Below are positions 4,170 through 57,655 of a stretch of DNA of 64,000 nt, piece after piece. Location: sequence record MT446415.1. The stretch is one strand, 5' to 3'. The position numbers and the translations under genes are program-made. The notes below the pieces were generated by a model. It did no database searches. It had not been told where the DNA came from and saw only the letters and a program-made list of their open reading frames with translations. The stretch comes from Escherichia virus TH44. How positions within the stretch are numbered: position 1 is the first letter of the stretch; each line of letters opens with the position of its first letter.

Positions 4170-4225
4170 TTTACTTACTCCCCTCCTAATGACATAATGG
4201 TCTTTCTTACAACAGAGAGACCATT

Positions 4226-4786
4226 ATGAACATCATCAAATCTGATACCGAACCCAACCAGTTAAAATTTAGTGAAATGGAGATAGCTTCATTATTTGAA
4301 TGCCGCACATCAAAGGTTGATAAGACCTTGCATTCAAACATCAACGCAATCATCAAGTCAAGGTTGTCTATACCTGATACAGTCTTGTATCGTGGGGTCA
4401 CCCAACAAGAGATTGATTTGTTAGATGAAGCAAAAGAATCAATGCAACCTTTTGAATTTGGACGGATAACCTCCTTTACAGAAGACTATGGTATTGCCAG
4501 GGATTTTGCTGCAATGGAATATGTGTCAAGGACTATCATCAGATTGAATCAGACCAAAGCTTTTTGTTACCATGATGCGATGCGCAAAATCGCGCTTGAC
4601 GTCCCACTGGAATTCTTCAATACTGCTTCTGGTTCCGAACAGGCAGCAACGTTAAGACGTGAAGAATACATGGACATGATTGATTCTGAGCTTGAATGGT
4701 TTGTTCCAGTTGACCAGAAATTCGTGGTGGTTGATGCTGGATTTGTTGGTGATTATTATGTTCTTGACTGTGTACAAGAGCTATAA
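4226..4786 (+). CDS. ADP-ribosyltransferase, ModA/ModB family
   Basis: 186 aa; ordered R-S-E motifs LYRG, ITSFTEDY, SELEWFVP; position upstream of dda as in T4 modA/modB. Confidence 0.7.
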   Translation: MNIIKSDTEPNQLKFSEMEIASLFECRTSKVDKTLHSNINAIIKSRLSIPDTVLYRGVTQQEIDLLDEAKESMQPFEFGRITSFTEDYGIARDFAAMEYVSRTIIRLNQTKAFCYHDAMRKIALDVPLEFFNTASGSEQAATLRREEYMDMIDSELEWFVPVDQKFVVVDAGFVGDYYVLDCVQEL

Positions 4787-5494: not shown

Positions 5495-5550
5495 CAAAAA
5501 GTAGTGTACACACCCAATGGATGGTGTATAATGAATCCATACTGAGTTAC
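5495..5550 (+). promoter_or_regulatory. T4-type early promoter cassette
   Basis: A-tract, GTGTAC, 17 bp, TATAAT; inverted repeat ATGGAT/ATCCAT flanks the -10; conserved CCATACTGAGTTACC downstream. Confidence 0.6.
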
Positions 5551-8866: not shown

Positions 8867-8926
8867 TGTACAAGGCCAATGGAAAGAGACATAATCATCT
8901 CATCAACTACTGATGAGGATAACAAA
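8858..8926 (+). promoter_or_regulatory. T4-type early promoter cassette
   Basis: AAAAAGTAGTGTACAA with dexA TAG stop inside it, 18 bp, CATAAT, then CATCAACTACTGATGAGGA carrying the SD. Confidence 0.6.
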
Positions 8927-11717: not shown

Positions 11718-13550
11718 ATGATGATTAATAATGAAATTAAAGTACTCTCGGACGTCGAGCATATCAAAAAACGCTCCGGGATGTATATTGGTTCCAGTTC
11801 AAATGAAGCGCATGAGCGATTCTTGTTTGGTGAATATAAGTCCGTAAGCTATGTTCCTGGTATTGTAAAACTGATTGATGAAATTATCGATAACTCTGTT
11901 GATGAAGCAATTCGCACCAGTTTTAAATTTGCCAATAAAATTGATGTTCAAATTAAAGATAATCAGATTTCGGTTTCTGATAATGGCCGTGGTATTCCAC
12001 AGGCAATGGTTACAGACCAAAACGGTGAACAAATCCCCGGCCCTGTTGCAGCATGGACTATTCCAAAAGCTGGTGGCAACTTCGGCGATGATGCTGAACG
12101 TAAAACTGGCGGGATGAATGGTGTCGGGTCTTCTCTGACCAATATTTTCTCTGTATTGTTCACCGGGATTACCGCTGATGGTGCAAATGAAATCACCGTT
12201 AACTGCTCCAACGGTATGGAAAACAAAGGTTGGTCGACCAAGAAATCTAAGGGCAAAGGTACAACTGTTATATTTGTTCCAGATTTTAGTCACTTTGAAG
12301 AAAATAGTCTGTCCCAGATTTATCTGGATATTACATTGGACCGTCTGCAAACTCTTGCGGTTGTTTATCCGGATATTCAGTTCACCTTTAATGGTAAAAA
12401 GGTTGATGGTAATTTCAAAAAGTTTGCCAAGCAATTCGGAACCGAAGTTGTTATCCAGGAAACTGATACAGTATCGATGGCCTTTACGACTAGTCCGGAT
12501 GGTTTCCGTCAGCTGACTTATGTCAACAACATTCACACAAAGAATGGCGGACACCACGTTGAATGTGTTATGGATGATATCTGTGAACACCTTCAGCCGG
12601 CGATTAAGCGCAAATATAAAGGCATCGAGGTGACCAAGGCACGAGTTAAAGAATGCCTCACCATGCTTATGTTCATCCGCGATATGAGCAACATGCGATT
12701 TGATTCCCAGACCAAGGAGCGATTGACTTCTCCGGCCGGTGAAATCCGAAATCACATTAAGATTGATGCTAAGAAAATCGCGCAAGCTATTCTGAAAAAT
12801 GAACCGCTGATTATGCCGATTGTTGAAGCTGCATTAGCCCGTAAATTGGCTGCAGAGAAAGCAGCAGAGACTAAGGCAAATAAGAAAGCTTCGAAGGCCA
12901 AGGTACAAAAGCATATCAAGGCCAACGAATGGGGTAATGATAAGCTGGAAACGACTCTGTTCCTGACCGAAGGGGATTCTGCAACTGGTCCATTTATCAA
13001 GGTTCGTGACCGTGAATTGCAAGGTGCTTATCCGTTACGTGGTAAGTTTAAAAACACATGGGGTCTGAAAGCTGTCGAAGTTATGAAGAACGCTGAAGCC
13101 TTTGATGTGTGTGCGATTACTGGTTTAACGATTGGACAACCGGCCGAGAATATGAATTACCGAAACATTGCTATCATGACAGATGCGGATGTGGATGGTG
13201 TCGGTAGTATCTATCCATCATTATTGGCGTTTTTCAGTAACTGGCCAGAGCTATTCCATGAAGGACGAATTCGCTTTGTGAAAACTCCTGTTATTATTGC
13301 GCAGCTCAAAGATAAACAAGAATGGTTCTATTCTCTTCCTGACTATGAAGAAGCTAAGGATAAACTTCCGAAGCACACCATCCGATATATTAAGGGACTT
13401 GGTTCTCTGGAAGATGCCGAGTACAAACGCGTATTGCTCGAACCAGTATTCGAAGTTGTTCAATTGCCCGACAACTGGAAAGAACTGTTCGAAATGCTAT
13501 TCGGTAAAGATTCCCAGCAGCGTAAAGACTGGATGAATGCGACGCTATAA
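11718..13550 (+). CDS. 39: DNA topoisomerase II large subunit (GyrB-like), fused gp39+gp60 form
   Basis: 610 aa; ATPase motifs SDNGRGIP, GMNGVGSS; TOPRIM LTEGDSA and DADVDG; single uninterrupted ORF. Confidence 0.9.
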   Translation: MMINNEIKVLSDVEHIKKRSGMYIGSSSNEAHERFLFGEYKSVSYVPGIVKLIDEIIDNSVDEAIRTSFKFANKIDVQIKDNQISVSDNGRGIPQAMVTDQNGEQIPGPVAAWTIPKAGGNFGDDAERKTGGMNGVGSSLTNIFSVLFTGITADGANEITVNCSNGMENKGWSTKKSKGKGTTVIFVPDFSHFEENSLSQIYLDITLDRLQTLAVVYPDIQFTFNGKKVDGNFKKFAKQFGTEVVIQETDTVSMAFTTSPDGFRQLTYVNNIHTKNGGHHVECVMDDICEHLQPAIKRKYKGIEVTKARVKECLTMLMFIRDMSNMRFDSQTKERLTSPAGEIRNHIKIDAKKIAQAILKNEPLIMPIVEAALARKLAAEKAAETKANKKASKAKVQKHIKANEWGNDKLETTLFLTEGDSATGPFIKVRDRELQGAYPLRGKFKNTWGLKAVEVMKNAEAFDVCAITGLTIGQPAENMNYRNIAIMTDADVDGVGSIYPSLLAFFSNWPELFHEGRIRFVKTPVIIAQLKDKQEWFYSLPDYEEAKDKLPKHTIRYIKGLGSLEDAEYKRVLLEPVFEVVQLPDNWKELFEMLFGKDSQQRKDWMNATL

Positions 13551-16533: not shown

Positions 16534-17508
16534 ATGTTTAATATCAAATGTATGTCTAAAGCCGAACAAGAACGAGTTGTCTCTCTTTATGAATCTGGTA
16601 ACTATACGCAAGACGAACTTGCACTCGGTTTCGGTGTATCGGTTGACACCATTCGCCGCGTTTTGAAAAATGATAAAGAATCAAAATTAGCTAAAACCAT
16701 TTCTGCATCATTGAAAGCCGCTGTCGGGGTGGCGATTAATGCTCCAGTGACAGTAACGGTTGAAGTTCCGATTGTTGAAGATACAATCGGCGGTAGCCGT
16801 CCAGAAATCGTATGGAACGCATCAAGCAAATTCGTTTCCATCACTGAAGGTCGTACAGTCTGGAACGCAACAAAAGACCATAAACACTTTGATGATATTA
16901 TTCAGGCATTGATTGAATTCCGTTATGAAGATGCTATCGAGTTTATCTCAATCAAAGCTGCAGTACAAAAATATGTGAAAGGTGATGTGCGTATTGAAGG
17001 TGGTAGTCTGTTCTATCAGGGAATTGAACTGCGTTCTGGCCTGGTTACTCGTATCATTGATTCAATGCAAAATGGCGAAGACTTTGAATTCTATCTGCCG
17101 TTCCTTGAGAATCTCCTTGAGAACCCGAGTGAGAAAGCCGTACAGCGTTTGTTTGACTTCCTGGTTGCGAACGATATCGAAATCACCGAAGACGGTCATT
17201 TCATCGCATGGAAAATGGTTCGTGCAACTTACAAAGATTGCCACTCAAACACATTCGACAACAGCCCTGGTCAATATGTTAAAATGCCGCGCTCTCGTGT
17301 GAATGACAATGACGAACAGACCTGTTCAACCGGGTTGCATGTTTGCTCTAAAGGCTATATCGGAAGTGGTTTTGGTCATGGTGATGGACGCATCGTATCC
17401 TGTAAAGTTCACCCGCGTGATGTTGTAAGTATCCCGGTTGATTATAACGATTCCAAAATGCGGGTCTGTGGTTACCTGGTTCTTGATGATGTAACTGAAC
17501 AATTCTAA
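16534..17508 (+). CDS. rIIB: rIIB protein
   Basis: 324 aa (T4 rIIB 312); translationally coupled to rIIA (stop/start 1 nt apart). Confidence 0.8.
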   Translation: MFNIKCMSKAEQERVVSLYESGNYTQDELALGFGVSVDTIRRVLKNDKESKLAKTISASLKAAVGVAINAPVTVTVEVPIVEDTIGGSRPEIVWNASSKFVSITEGRTVWNATKDHKHFDDIIQALIEFRYEDAIEFISIKAAVQKYVKGDVRIEGGSLFYQGIELRSGLVTRIIDSMQNGEDFEFYLPFLENLLENPSEKAVQRLFDFLVANDIEITEDGHFIAWKMVRATYKDCHSNTFDNSPGQYVKMPRSRVNDNDEQTCSTGLHVCSKGYIGSGFGHGDGRIVSCKVHPRDVVSIPVDYNDSKMRVCGYLVLDDVTEQF

Positions 17509-17515
17509 ATTAATC

Positions 17516-17529
17516 GGGGCTTCGGCCCC
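17516..17529 (+). promoter_or_regulatory. intercistronic GC hairpin with UUCG tetraloop
   Basis: GGGGC-TTCG-GCCCC directly after rIIB stop, no U-tract, followed by SD. Confidence 0.4.
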
Positions 17530-17541
17530 TAATGAGGCTTT

Positions 17542-17739
17542 ATGTTAGGTTTCCAAGCACGTGTAGTTGAAGAACATGACCAGTTGGTTTTGAAAATTAA
17601 TGCTCTTGAAGAATTTATTAAAGGCGGTGTTTTTGAAACTCTCGATGCTCGTCAACAAGGTCTTTTGATTGCACAACTCGATGCGATGGGTGCTTATGCT
17701 CATGTACTGGCAGTCCGTATCTCTTATTTTGGTGAATAA
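17542..17739 (+). CDS. hypothetical protein
   Basis: 65 aa, SD GAGG. Confidence 0.4.
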   Translation: MLGFQARVVEEHDQLVLKINALEEFIKGGVFETLDARQQGLLIAQLDAMGAYAHVLAVRISYFGE

Positions 17740-17742
17740 ATT

Positions 17743-18063
17743 ATGATTAACTATATGAACGTTGGCGATGAATCTATTAACGAAATTCGATTGCATGGTA
17801 ATCATGTTGCGGATATTGTTTATTGTGTTGATTGTCATTATGCTTCTACAAAGTCAACTGGCCGGTTATATGCGAGAGACATCATTCTTGCAACGAAAGA
17901 AGAACTTCGTAGTCTGGACCATTCTACTCTAGCCGAAAGTGTCAGAATTTATTATGGCGTCGTTCATGTAGACAAAGTTTATATTGGCAGTGATTATCAA
18001 GAGCAAGCTGAGCAAAATTCTTTGGATACTGTCGAAAAATCCGATATGTATTTTAAAGGATGA
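17743..18063 (+). CDS. hypothetical protein
   Basis: 106 aa ORF. Confidence 0.4.
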   Translation: MINYMNVGDESINEIRLHGNHVADIVYCVDCHYASTKSTGRLYARDIILATKEELRSLDHSTLAESVRIYYGVVHVDKVYIGSDYQEQAEQNSLDTVEKSDMYFKG

Positions 18064-18067
18064 GCTG

Positions 18068-18661
18068 ATGATTCAGAAGAGTAAAACATGGGAGCATCTG
18101 AAAAAGATGCCCTCCTTCCTTTATACAAAGGAAGACTTAACCCCCGAATCCCTGCAAAAGATTGTAGACACTGCCAGGTATTCATTGCGTAAAGACCCAG
18201 GTCAGGACCGTGAGCAAGTCATGCAAAGATGTATGGTAGCCACAATGGCTGAACAAGCTATTGCTAAATGGACCTCCGGTTTTTTATGTGGCGGTGATGA
18301 AGATTACGATAATCCTTACTCCTTTGCATTTGATGTAGTTTCGAAGGAAGGGGTAAGAATCGAAGTCAAGACTCATCAGTCTGGTTCCAAATGGATATCC
18401 GTACATACTGGCCACCAGGGCGATTATCCACATGGTTACGGGGTTAATCTTGGTCCCTTTATGCAGCACAAGCTTGCTGACCTTATGATTATGTTTAATG
18501 TAAAAGAGACTCTCAAAGGTTATAGATTTAAACCAAAATTCCTTGCTGGGCCTGGTGCTTTCGTTCCTGAGTCTGGTCTTGTGCAGAAGTCACAAGGGGA
18601 TGGTTGGTACCTCCGTTCTTGTTCAGAAGAAAAATTTCCCTATCACCGGTTTACAAGCTGA
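18068..18661 (+). CDS. putative PD-(D/E)xK-type nuclease (possible denB equivalent)
   Basis: 197 aa from internal ATG; FAFDVV...VRIEVKTH fits D...ExK; lies in the rIIB-to-ndd interval where T4 has denB. Confidence 0.4.
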   Translation: MIQKSKTWEHLKKMPSFLYTKEDLTPESLQKIVDTARYSLRKDPGQDREQVMQRCMVATMAEQAIAKWTSGFLCGGDEDYDNPYSFAFDVVSKEGVRIEVKTHQSGSKWISVHTGHQGDYPHGYGVNLGPFMQHKLADLMIMFNVKETLKGYRFKPKFLAGPGAFVPESGLVQKSQGDGWYLRSCSEEKFPYHRFTS

Positions 18662-18673
18662 ACCAACCATGTA

Positions 18674-18707
18674 ATAATGTCCTCACACCAACAAATGAGG
18701 ACATTAT
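18674..18707 (+). promoter_or_regulatory. RBS-sequestering hairpin
   Basis: perfect 12 bp inverted repeat ATAATGTCCTCA / TGAGGACATTAT with 10 nt loop; SD GAGGA lies in the 3-prime arm, ATG at 18709. Confidence 0.55.
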
Positions 18708-18708
18708 C

Positions 18709-18984
18709 ATGGAACACGTTACTACTCACAACATCAAACAAATTCTTATCCAAGCACTCAAAAACAACAACATCAATTTTCCAACCCATGAAATTTTTGA
18801 TGTGGCATTCAACGAAGTCCAGGGTCAAGTTGCATATTATGACGTTATCGTTTATCTTTCAGAATTTGAAGTCTACCACCTGACTGAAATTGCTTTCTAT
18901 CTCTATCGTGGAACAGCAGATTTCACTGGGGTTGTGAATGCAGTTGGTGCATATAAAGAAGTTAAAGAACAAATGCACAATTAA
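18709..18984 (+). CDS. hypothetical protein
   Basis: 91 aa from internal ATG directly after the hairpin. Confidence 0.45.
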   Translation: MEHVTTHNIKQILIQALKNNNINFPTHEIFDVAFNEVQGQVAYYDVIVYLSEFEVYHLTEIAFYLYRGTADFTGVVNAVGAYKEVKEQMHN

Positions 18985-18985
18985 T

Positions 18986-19050
18986 TAAAAAGTAGTGTAC
19001 ATCAGTATGGAGTCTATGTATAATGATTCCATACTGAGTTACCAAACAGA
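18986..19050 (+). promoter_or_regulatory. T4-type early promoter cassette
   Basis: AAAAAGTAGTGTACA, 18 bp, TATAAT, then TTCCATACTGAGTTACC; ATGGA/TCCAT inverted repeat around -10. Confidence 0.6.
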
Positions 19051-19062
19051 CTGGAGAATAAA

Positions 19063-19218
19063 ATGAAACCTGCTCAATATGCAATGACTTTATACCTTGA
19101 AGTTAATGGCGATATTACTGAATTTTTTAAATTAATGCAACAGCGCGGAAAAAGTTTTGCAGTTACTGAGCGTCAATTTTACGCTTGCCGTAAAAATACA
19201 TACAATCGTTATGCGTGA
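19063..19218 (+). CDS. hypothetical small protein
   Basis: 51 aa, not in track; SD GGAG after cassette. Confidence 0.35.
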   Translation: MKPAQYAMTLYLEVNGDITEFFKLMQQRGKSFAVTERQFYACRKNTYNRYA

Positions 19219-19571: not shown

Positions 19572-19630
19572 ATAAAAAAGTGTACATCTCCAGTGGTTGT
19601 AGTATAATGAACCTATCAACTACTGGAGAT
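19572..19630 (+). promoter_or_regulatory. T4-type early promoter cassette
   Basis: AAAAAGTGTACA, 17 bp, TATAAT, then CTATCAACTACTGGAG. Confidence 0.6.
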
Positions 19631-19634
19631 GATT

Positions 19635-19751
19635 ATGAAAAAGTTACTTAAAGCTATTTGGAACATGTTTGTGCTGTTTGTTGTCCTGAGCATTTTCCCA
19701 ATTGTTTTTATGATTGACCATGTGCGTGTTTACTTTAACTATTTCTTTTGA
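19635..19751 (+). CDS. small membrane peptide
   Basis: 38 aa, not in track; hydrophobic core NMFVLFVVLSIFPIVFMI. Confidence 0.3.
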   Translation: MKKLLKAIWNMFVLFVVLSIFPIVFMIDHVRVYFNYFF

Positions 19752-20210: not shown

Positions 20211-20270
20211 TGTACAAACTCTTGGGAGCAGAGTATAATGCTCCCAGTGGATAATAAAATTTAACTGAGG
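20208..20270 (+). promoter_or_regulatory. T4-type early promoter cassette with hairpin around -10
   Basis: TAGTGTACAAACTCTT-GGGAGCA-gagTATAAT-GCTCCC; perfect 7 bp inverted repeat. Confidence 0.65.
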
Positions 20271-48252: not shown

Positions 48253-49385
48253 TTGAATTATATGATAACTTAATGAAGCTTTGCGCCGAATCCGATAAAG
48301 GTAAGTTTTTCTATACGGATTTTGTTTCTCCATTTGAAACTAAGTTCCGCATCTTTAGCTATAACTATGCTTCCTATAGTGATTGGCTTCTTGATGATGC
48401 GCTGGAGTGTCGTGGTATTATGTTTGAAATGGATGCTAATGGCCCAGTTCGCATTGCCGCCCGTCCTATGGAAAAATTCTTTAATCTGGGTGAGAATCCA
48501 ATGACCATGGACCTTAACCTTGATGAGGTTGTCCTGGTTACTGCAAAAGCTGATGGTAGTTTGGTTTCTACTTATATGGACCAGACTAATATCGCCTTTA
48601 AATCCAAAGGGTCAATCAAAAGCTCCCAGGCTGCTGAATCCTTGCAGGTGTTTAAACAAGAGCATCGCAGTGCATTCAGGGCTCGCGTAACTGAAATCAC
48701 TGAAGCTGGTTATACATGCAATATGGAATATGTTGCACCAACCAACCGCATTGTTTTGCCTTACCAGGAACGTGACCTGATTTTACTGAACGTTCGTCAT
48801 AATGAAACGGGCGAATATATTCCTTATCAGGAACTGTTCAAAGATGCTGCACTCCGTCCTTTCCTGGTTGAAGCATATGACCCGGCGAGCATTGAGAATG
48901 TTCGTGGTATGAAAGAGATTGAAGGCTTCGTCTACGAGTTGGCAAGTGGTCAGAAGTTCAAGATGAAAACAGAATGGTATTGTGCTCTGCATCATACTAA
49001 AGACTCCATTAATAATAATGAGCGACTGTTTGAAGTTGTTGTTGCTGGCGGGGCAGATGATGTTATTGCCATGTTTACTGGCGATAATTATGCTCGCGAA
49101 AAAGTTAATGCCTTTACTGTAACGCATCTGGATTATCTGTCCAATACGCTGGGATTGTTGCTTGATGCTCAGAAACAATTGGCAGGAAAAGACCGTCGCG
49201 AGTTTGCGATTAAAGGTCAAGAGTTGTGCAAACCATACCCGGGATTGTTCTCCGTATTAATGAACACCTATCAACGCCCACAGGAAACTGAACAAACGAT
49301 TGCTCAAATCAATAAAGTTTTCCTTAAAAATCATAAACTTTACATTCCGTCGGACTACCAAGCGGAAGTAATCCTTCCTGAATAA
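48249..49385 (+). CDS. rnlA: RNA ligase 1
   Basis: 378 aa (T4 374); nucleotidyltransferase motif I lysine in TAKADGSL. Confidence 0.8.
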   Translation: MIELYDNLMKLCAESDKGKFFYTDFVSPFETKFRIFSYNYASYSDWLLDDALECRGIMFEMDANGPVRIAARPMEKFFNLGENPMTMDLNLDEVVLVTAKADGSLVSTYMDQTNIAFKSKGSIKSSQAAESLQVFKQEHRSAFRARVTEITEAGYTCNMEYVAPTNRIVLPYQERDLILLNVRHNETGEYIPYQELFKDAALRPFLVEAYDPASIENVRGMKEIEGFVYELASGQKFKMKTEWYCALHHTKDSINNNERLFEVVVAGGADDVIAMFTGDNYAREKVNAFTVTHLDYLSNTLGLLLDAQKQLAGKDRREFAIKGQELCKPYPGLFSVLMNTYQRPQETEQTIAQINKVFLKNHKLYIPSDYQAEVILPE

Positions 49386-49389
49386 TAAA

Positions 49390-49455
49390 AAAGGGGTGTA
49401 CAAGCCCCTTCTTTCTATACATAATGGTTCCATCAACTACTGATGAGGACCAAAA
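49390..49455 (+). promoter_or_regulatory. T4-type early promoter cassette
   Basis: AAGGGGTGTACAAGCCCCTT (the -35 sits in a hairpin loop), CATAAT, GGTTCCATCAACTACTGATGAGGA. Confidence 0.6.
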
Positions 49456-49456
49456 C

Positions 49457-49690
49457 ATGTTAAACTTAATTACAAATGACAGAGTTACACAGGCATATGG
49501 TGACAGAAATGATGGAATCTATGTCTACAAGGGAGACCACCGGATTGGTTTCATTACTGACCTGAAGGCCAAATTGTTAAAAGAACTGAAAGCTCAAACA
49601 GGTGATTCTGGGTTTAGAGCAAGAGCCAAAAAGAAAGATGAGCGCCTAGGTGCCAACTCTTTTGGTCCCCGGGGTTACAACCGCTACTAA
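49457..49690 (+). CDS. truncated paralogue of the alc N-terminal region
   Basis: 77 aa from internal ATG; ...QAYGDRNDGIYVYKGDHRIGFITDLKAKLLKELKAQ aligns with the N-terminus of the next ORF. Confidence 0.45.
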   Translation: MLNLITNDRVTQAYGDRNDGIYVYKGDHRIGFITDLKAKLLKELKAQTGDSGFRARAKKKDERLGANSFGPRGYNRY

Positions 49691-57587: not shown

Positions 57588-57655
57588 ACAGTTTACTTTG
57601 GTACAGGTTATGATATTATAAACCTGTACCAACAAATGAAAACAACTGGAGAATA
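57588..57655 (+). promoter_or_regulatory. early promoter cassette variant with 10 bp hairpin
   Basis: GTTTAC then GGTACAGGTT-atgatattata-AACCTGTACC perfect inverted repeat around a -10-like TATTAT. Confidence 0.5.

Follow-up and report, generated by a model that had tools for sequence, protein, structure and literature searches.

The stretch of DNA analyzed here, 64,000 nucleotides (nt) of Escherichia virus TH44 (sequence record MT446415.1; hereafter, the window), includes a part of the variable rIIB-ndd early region, the gene content of which differs among related phages. Between positions 17500 and 20500, the window is 92-97% identical to T4-like Gaprivervirus phages (VR7, SP18, VR20/25/26, and others). 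In this region, rIIB is followed by denB.1, an open reading frame (ORF) encoding a DUF7418 protein, and denB; next comes an ORFan encoding 91 amino acids (aa), and after it further small ORFs belonging to the ndd region. The 47 nt that separate the denB stop codon (18661) from the ATG of the ORFan (18709) are filled by a cassette that combines a hairpin with a predicted promoter of the T4 early type, the upstream half of which is contained in the 3' end of denB. One arm of the hairpin coincides with the putative -10 region of this promoter, and the other one with the ribosome-binding site (RBS) of the ORFan.

The two arms of the hairpin, ATAATGTCCTCA and TGAGGACATTAT, are 100% complementary over 12 bp in an inverted-repeat search and enclose the loop CACCAACAAA. 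These features had been noticed in an original prediction made from the sequence, and all of them were found where expected: the 12-bp stem with its 10-nt loop is perfectly paired, the Shine-Dalgarno (SD) sequence GAGGA lies inside the 3' arm, and the ATG, described as immediately following the stem, is separated from it by a single base. The TCCTCA portion of the 5' arm resembles an anti-SD sequence. In this strain, an outer CCAUG helix additionally pairs the AUG; it is missing in the VR7/SP18-type relatives, which have CTGTG in its place. A fold-energy calculation, suggested as a check of the original prediction, yielded -21 kcal/mol for the hairpin in a 69-nt context that includes the outer helix (z = -5.38; none of the 200 dinucleotide shuffles was as good) and -14.8 kcal/mol for the 42-nt core (z = -4.7). 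Two inverted repeats of 12 perfectly paired bp and with a loop of 3-40 nt are present in the window, against 0.23 expected from first-order Markov simulations, in which the probability of finding at least one such repeat per 64-kb window was 0.165 and that of at least two was 0.035. Both repeats fall within promoter cassettes; the other one, at 57598-57632 (TTGGTACAGGTT with AACCTGTACCAA), brackets the -10 element (TATTAT) of the promoter TTTACT-16-TATTAT.

A consensus scan identified, partly upstream of the hairpin and partly over its 5' arm, TTTACA (18650-55) and, after 17 nt, AATAAT (18673-78) preceded by TG, with 10 matches among the 12 consensus positions. The early promoters of T4 have a UP/-35/TGn/-10 architecture (PMC2988021), with GTTTAC at -36 to -31, conserved A at -11 and T at -7, and a variable position -12 (PMC1524935); for the T4/PST group, the early consensus is TTTACW-N17-TAYWAT (PMC4122927). 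The GTTTAC motif, the TGn element and the A-rich upstream tract GAAGAAAAATTT all agree with the published T4 early consensus. On these grounds, we infer promoter activity and a transcription start at approximately 18685. The seventh base downstream of the -10 hexamer, which is the start predicted here, is most commonly A among the promoter-like sites of the window (24/43), and the loop is similar to (T)ATCAAC(T)A, the initial-transcribed motif found after the -10 element in the remaining early cassettes of this phage. Because the 5' arm ends at the predicted start, an RNA made from this promoter would lack that arm, and the stem could not form (Table 1). Two other types of promoters were considered and rejected, namely, a late promoter (TATAAATA) within the arm, for which the best match is 5/8 (TAATAATG) and 4/8 in the relatives, and a MotA-box middle promoter, for which the spacing to the -10 element is wrong.

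Table 1 Features of the cassette downstream of denB and of its surroundings
Feature	Position	Strand	Remarks
5' arm, ATAATGTCCTCA	18674-18685	+	-10 bases, discriminator and predicted +1
Loop, CACCAACAAA	18686-18695	+	10 nt
3' arm, TGAGGACATTAT	18696-18707	+	SD GAGGA and SD-AUG spacer
SD, GAGGA	18697-18701	+	Within the 3' arm; 7-nt spacer to the ATG
ATG of the 91-aa ORF	18709-18711	+	Separated from the stem by one base, C18708
Outer helix, CCAUG with CAUGG	18667-18671 with 18708-18712	+	Pairs the AUG too; strain-specific
-35, GTTTACA	18649-18655	+	Fits the T4 early consensus GTTTAC; overlaps the last denB codons
Extended -10, TGT + AATAAT	18670-18678	+	Bases 18674-18678 are the first five bases of the 5' arm
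A-rich tract, GAAGAAAAATTT	18626-18637	+	About -59 to -48 from the predicted start; UP-element-like, putative role
Predicted transcription start	18683-18687	+	A18685: 7th nt past the -10; the 5' arm ends here
rIIB	16534-17508	+	
denB.1	17542-17739	+	
DUF7418 ORF	17743-18063	+	
denB (DNA endonuclease IV)	18068-18661	+	Stop TGA 18659-18661; 95-100% matches to annotated denB in VR7, SP18 and others
91-aa ORFan	18709-18984	+	phrog_17571; function unknown
Next promoter/stem-loop cassette	18996-19062	+	TGTACA-17-TATAAT; stem 18997-19014/19025-19042, -10 in the loop

The calculated effect of the start position on the accessibility of the RBS is large. The cost of opening the SD-to-AUG segment (18697-18711) is 14.4-17.7 kcal/mol for RNAs with starts at 18500, 18600 or 18662, compared with 4.4 kcal/mol for RNAs with starts at 18683-18687. 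Thus, the translational repression envisaged in the original prediction is supported for read-through RNA, which should be poorly translated because the SD is buried in a very stable helix (14-18 kcal/mol to open), but does not extend to the RNA from the predicted own start, in which the SD is open. We also ranked the gene starts of the window in a rough survey, calculating the opening energy of the SD-to-AUG segment in a 180-nt read-through context for 108 starts. The mean was 5.9 kcal/mol (standard deviation, 3.0), and the three most masked starts were those of a modA/B-like gene (19.5 kcal/mol), the ORFan (ATG 18709; 16.5 kcal/mol, the second highest value) and the homolog of soc (13.6 kcal/mol). 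As soc is a textbook case of such masking in T4, its presence among the top three indicates that the survey recovers a known positive and serves as an internal control.

To trace the cassette, we compared the region downstream of denB in 64 T4-like sequences, 63 of them distinct. In all of these except L175, a -35 element of the GTTTACA, GTTTACT or GTGTACA type, a spaced -10 element and a stem-loop are found 3' of denB; in the relatives, the extended -10 takes the form TGn-TATAGT at the same spacing. The -10/discriminator region pairs with the SD/spacer region in the homologous hairpins of Marfavirus, that is, Klebsiella phages (TAGTACTCCT/AGGAGTACTA), of Kanagawavirus, an Enterobacter phage, and several IMG/VR genomes (TATAGTACTCC(T)/(A)GGAGTACTATA), of L177 (AGTACTCC/GGAGTACT) and of L163 (AGCTCCA/TGGAGCT), and the loop has changed little in Marfavirus, Kanagawavirus and L163. 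When 12 lineage variants, including two from this phage, were folded, the z values of 10 were between -2.7 and -7.1. The gene that follows the cassette is by no means conserved, with at least 8 different, unrelated genes found in this position among the T4-like genomes; the cassette therefore is a conserved boundary for exchanged genes.

Covariation was counted in a MAFFT alignment of 17 distinct versions of the hairpin, where the structure described here is paired in 84.6% of the alignment cells, compared with at most 52.7% when the partners are slid. Two pairs are changed on both sides, A-U to G-C or the reverse at position 5 of the -10 hexamer, and G-C to A-U or the reverse right after the hexamer; double-changed cells number 9, against 3.2+-1.2 in column shuffles, none of which (0/500) reached this count. 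In the upper stem, our own reading of the alignment reveals a matched one-base shift on both arms between clades. Because the 3' arms are matched by sequence in the MAFFT alignment, the upper stem is out of register between the clades, and the count understates pairing in the Gaprivervirus rows. The compensation takes place in the SD-AUG spacer, for which no other constraint is known. Within Gaprivervirus, the changes consist of two loop variants, one substitution in the outer flank and one stem substitution, C to U, after which the pair is still formed as G.U. The conservation of the hairpin across genera, with compensatory changes, goes beyond chance.

Outside the T4-like phages, the cassette was not found in an IMG/VR scan with a pattern consisting of the loop and the SD (CACCAACA N1-3 TGAGGA): among more than 120 matches, those that proved real upon refolding were denB-downstream loci of T4-like phages, and the others were chance matches. 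Some T4-like phages pair the SD downstream of denB with different promoter segments. In the Klebsiella phages L136, L181, L182 and L184, the -35 region GTTTACTTCCGG pairs with CCGGAGTAAAC, which contains the SD; in the L154, L155, L168 and L169 type, the promoter spacer CTCCGTTAG pairs with the SD-containing CTAACGGAG. These pairings are other solutions to the same end.

The organization of the locus closely resembles that of the promoter-early stem-loop (PeSL) cassettes described in T4-like phages (Arbiol et al. 2010, PMC2839356; Comeau et al. 2014, PMC4122927). Like these, it is located between small early ORFs of a hyperplastic region, starts at the upstream stop codon and consists, in this order, of the stop codon, an A/T-rich tract, sigma-70-like -35 and -10 elements, a stem-loop over the -10, the SD and the ATG; overlap of the stem with the -10 box defines a described subclass (PMC2839356). 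Further shared traits are the many copies, with approximately 20 intergenic cassettes in the window, and the position at a boundary where downstream ORFans are exchanged between related phages (PMC2839356, PMC4122927). In its position, promoter, stem-loop, SD/ATG and repetition with swapped ORFans, the cassette thus matches the definition of a PeSL at the sequence level. There are, however, differences. The published stem-loops were interpreted as terminators or attenuators, with translation not discussed, and the one that was tested is G/C-rich; here, the stem is A/U-rich and lacks a U-tract, and its 3' arm is the SD. In addition, PeSLs have been catalogued in RB49/phi1, T4/PST and KVP40/nt-1, but not in Gaprivervirus.

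The second known system that is relevant here comprises the RBS-sequestering hairpins with an internal promoter of T4-type phages, in the genes e (lysozyme), soc, 49, I-TevI/II/III, segB and Aeh1 mobE (PMC3014915; PMC2988022). In these cases, the SD and/or the AUG are paired only on transcripts that begin upstream, whereas a promoter in or at the 5' arm gives rise to a shorter, translated RNA that lacks the arm, as predicted for the ORFan. The published cases involve a late promoter (TATAAATA) and late genes, unlike the cassette described here, which has a promoter of the early sigma-70 type and belongs to the early region; with such a promoter, the predicted outcome is early-only rather than late-only expression. 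Both PeSL cassettes and promoter-dependent RBS masking are already known, and the early instead of late promoter is what sets this case apart.

We conclude that the locus is probably a composite early-promoter/stem-loop cassette of the PeSL type that makes translation of the ORFan dependent on its own early promoter. Under this scenario, the 5' arm would serve as the -10, discriminator and +1 of a sigma-70 promoter of the T4 early type, and the 3' arm as the SD and spacer of the next gene. The scan of the interval from rIIB to denB detected no promoter or terminator consensus, only a GGGGCUUCGGCCCC hairpin, so that transcription from upstream would be expected to run via denB into the hairpin. 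Such read-through RNA, originating at upstream promoters and extending via rIIB, denB.1 and denB, would contain both arms and fold into a 12-bp helix (17-bp in this strain); it could not recruit the 30S subunit at AUG 18709 and would be almost untranslatable for the 91-aa ORF. Given the established footprint and helicase geometry of the ribosome, a denB ribosome terminating with the UGA in its A site would reach approximately 18667-18671, that is, the outer helix but not the 12-bp stem. Translational coupling from denB was rejected on the same grounds, as the stop codon is 47 nt from the AUG and the ribosome would reach only the outer CCAUG helix. By contrast, the own RNA starting at approximately 18685, devoid of the 5' arm and with the unstructured, A/C-rich leader CACCAACAAA, would be translated. 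The relief of masking would then depend on where transcription starts, as it does in T4 e, soc and I-TevI (PMC3014915, PMC2988022).

In T4, transcription from the early promoters begins at once and is turned off when the infection is a few minutes old, with the middle-mode RNA consisting partly of extended early transcripts and partly of transcripts from middle promoters, for example, PrIIB1 and PrIIB2 (PMC2988021). Synthesis of the ORFan product is thus likely to be confined to the immediate-early burst. The cassette would be translationally autonomous wherever recombination puts it and insulated from upstream transcription. No new mechanism is opened by this interpretation; rather, the hairpin joins a known style of gene control in phage T4. 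If correct, it would extend the RBS unmasking by promoter choice from late to early genes and to mobile PeSL cassettes, and would account for the shielding of recently gained ORFans against transcription from upstream. Hairpins over the RBS in the early regions of T4-like phages would then best be read together with the promoter embedded in them, and predict promoter-specific translation rather than blanket repression.

Several points weigh against dependence of ORFan translation on the embedded promoter. Both the activity of the promoter and its start are deduced from the consensus, and the -10 hexamer, AATAAT, has A instead of T at -12, a deviation that is mitigated by the TGn motif and by the variability of this position in T4-like early promoters (PMC1524935). 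In the literature, the role assigned to PeSL stem-loops is termination or attenuation and not a translational one (PMC2839356), and the published cases of RBS masking in T4 are all late genes (PMC2988022). Masking is not universal either, given that only approximately a quarter of the promoter cassettes of the window are strongly masked, with a large gap in opening cost between read-through RNA and RNA from the own start. Among the relatives, a Marfavirus sublineage (L006, L131, L145) has an A.C mismatch in the stem, with z = -2.2 in L145, and L178 lacks the pairing (z = -0.03); the 3' half of the L178 cassette resembles a different cassette (L006:1348), which fits the published location of PeSL crossovers, between the -10 and the ATG (PMC2839356). 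Finally, the covariation comes from few independent events, in two or three clades.

Among the alternative explanations, the one that fares best, although we consider it unlikely, is that the stem-loop acts mainly on transcription, by terminating, attenuating or pausing the polymerase that arrives from denB, with the burial of the SD being incidental. One PeSL stem-loop cut lacZ expression like a strong terminator (Arbiol et al., PMC2839356), and stem-loops overlapping the -10 are a common PeSL subclass (PMC2839356). A stable stem-loop right after a stop codon, as in intrinsic terminators, fits such a role, and an effect on transcription is compatible with the translational one. However, the stem is A/U-rich, unlike the G/C-rich one tested in that work (PMC2839356), and is not followed by a U-tract (CAUGGAACACGUUACUAC); the scan for intrinsic terminators detected none at 18674-18720, where the tail is CAUGGAACACG. 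Furthermore, the 3' arm precisely corresponds to the SD and spacer, with compensatory changes in the spacer, a feature that a pure terminator does not require.

The original prediction amounts to a model in which the sole mRNA contains the whole hairpin and stays repressed until cleavage by an RNase, a helicase or another trans-acting factor intervenes. The SD is indeed buried in a very stable stem that, judging from ribosome geometry, denB translation alone would not open, and T4-type phages process early mRNAs, for example, with RegB and RNase E (PMC3014915). Yet, with a conserved early promoter located exactly over the 5' arm, an unmasked transcript lacking this arm would be expected to appear without any factor, which removes the need for processing or a helicase. 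The RegB target GGAG is missing from the SD context of this phage (UGAGGAC), so that RegB cleavage was rejected; the Marfavirus and Kanagawavirus versions do have GAGGAG, and this point may differ in relatives. Neither a known RNA family nor a protein-binding motif matches the hairpin, with the Rfam covariance models yielding, for 18300-19100, one chance-level match (E = 0.62) on the wrong strand, to a eukaryotic long noncoding RNA. Reliance on a trans-acting factor thus appears quite improbable.

Finally, the hairpin might have no regulatory role, being a by-product of cassette recombination combined with independent constraints (an A/T-rich -10 facing an A/T-rich SD-AUG spacer, and a pyrimidine-rich discriminator facing a purine-rich SD), or else a recombination site acting at the DNA level: many cassettes, with their TCC-rich discriminator and GAGGA SD, are weakly complementary by default, recombination at PeSLs is documented (PMC2839356), the pairing in L178 was apparently lost through exchange of the 3' half with another cassette, and one perfect 12-bp repeat per 64 kb is not very rare (P about 0.17). 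This explanation sits poorly with a perfect stem, far more stable than that of a typical cassette, that makes the start cost 16.5 kcal/mol to open against a mean of 5.9, with its maintenance by different sequences in at least four lineages via double substitutions and a matched shift, and with the Gaprivervirus substitutions that fall in the loop or flank or produce a G.U pair, and we regard it as highly unlikely.

The logic predicted for the ORFan, in which the 5' arm precedes the predicted start and the SD and/or the AUG are located in the 3' arm, recurs at further sites of the window. At 4193-4228, within the region 4170-4228 that carries the promoter TTTACT-17-CATAAT, CATAATGGTCTTTCT, made up of the -10 hexamer and the discriminator, pairs with AGAGAGACCATTATG, which comprises an SD-like region and the AUG. 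The gene that begins here (4226-4786) encodes a modA/modB-like RNA polymerase ADP-ribosyltransferase (phrog_832, E = 7e-28), and its start, the most masked one in the window, requires only 2.9 kcal/mol for opening in RNA from the own start, compared with 19.5 kcal/mol in the read-through context. At 19581-19637, a 15-bp stem, CATCTCCAGTGGTTG with CAACTACTGGAGATG (hairpin 19585-19631), encloses in its loop the -10 of the promoter TGTACA-16-TATAAT; the 3' arm of this stem includes the SD (GGAG) of an ORF for an ndd.4-like membrane protein of 38 aa (phrog_3098). A double-hairpin cassette at 49385-49460 precedes the 77-aa Alc-like ORF (ATG 49457; PF17527, E = 1e-9): the first hairpin, GGGGTGTACAAGCCCC then TTCTTTCT, is terminator-like, with the -35 TGTACA in the loop, and the second one, GGTTCCATCA with TGATGAGGACC, masks the SD (11.4 kcal/mol, and 4.3 from the own start). 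A weaker instance of the same design is found at 8867. In the soc homolog (2087-2320; Pfam Soc PF16855, E = 6e-32), the AUG lies in a 15-bp hairpin with G.U pairs, AAGTCATGTAATT with AATTGCATGGCTT (region 2040-2100), that has the SD GGAG in the loop and a late-promoter-like AATAAATA just upstream; this hairpin corresponds to the classic regulation of T4 soc.

An early-promoter/SD-AUG hairpin is present in T4 itself, in the leader of modB (L188, NC_000866, ~13131-13215, minus strand), where GTTTACT-17-TATGAT lies upstream and the -10 hexamer with the discriminator, ATGATAGCTTC.., pairs with the SD and AUG, GGAGGCTATCAT(G); the pairing can also be written as ATGATAGCTTCTG with CGGAGGCTATCAT(G), and the local fold is -31.3 kcal/mol. 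No published description of this leader hairpin or experimental data on it were found in the literature searched. It is structurally similar to the hairpin of the modA/B-like gene (4193-4228) but differs in sequence; with the 18674-18707 hairpin, it shares the design, whereas both the gene and the sequence are different.

These cases raise the possibility, which we put forward tentatively and rate as somewhat doubtful, that SD masks with an embedded early promoter form, in T4-like phages, a separate and conserved class of elements that insulate translation, mirroring the hairpins of the late genes e, soc and I-TevI and confining translation of dose-sensitive host-takeover genes to their own immediate-early burst. 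Candidate members may include T4 modB, the modA/B-like, alc-like and ndd.4-like genes of the window, and the 91-aa ORFan. Should such a class exist, these genes would be kept silent in later read-through or middle-mode RNA, and at least a subset of the PeSL stem-loops would act on translation rather than as terminators.

The product of the ORFan itself received no function from Pfam, NCBIfam or PHROG and belongs to no Pfam or NCBIfam family. Its relatives come from 34 phage records, all Gaprivervirus, and are 94-100% identical; three loci are present in IMG/VR. The assignments of this protein as a MafI-family immunity protein (in one record) and as an HNH nuclease (in one note) were not supported by the library searches and were discarded. 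In Escherichia phage fDHCT2 (L005, 770-1030), the ORFan carries a 16-bp deletion and is unannotated, probably being a pseudogene; the hairpin in front of it differs by a C-to-U substitution, with a G.U pair remaining.

The GGGGCUUCGGCCCC hairpin between rIIB and denB.1 (17516-17529) has a UUCG tetraloop, with neither a U-tract nor a promoter nearby, and may be an RNA stability or processing element. On its 3' side, the ORFan is flanked by a second cassette, so that it sits between two of them. The second cassette belongs to an early-promoter family with copies at 5505, 18996, 23215, 41123 and 57148 and related sites at 20211, 20624 and 50943, which share the pattern AAAAAGTAG-TGTACA-N17-(T/C)ATAAT-GATTCCATACTGAGTTAC..CTGGAGAATAAAATG. 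In another type of cassette, GGGAGC/GCTCCC or GGGGTC/GACCCC stems surround the -10 element, with compensatory changes between the copies.

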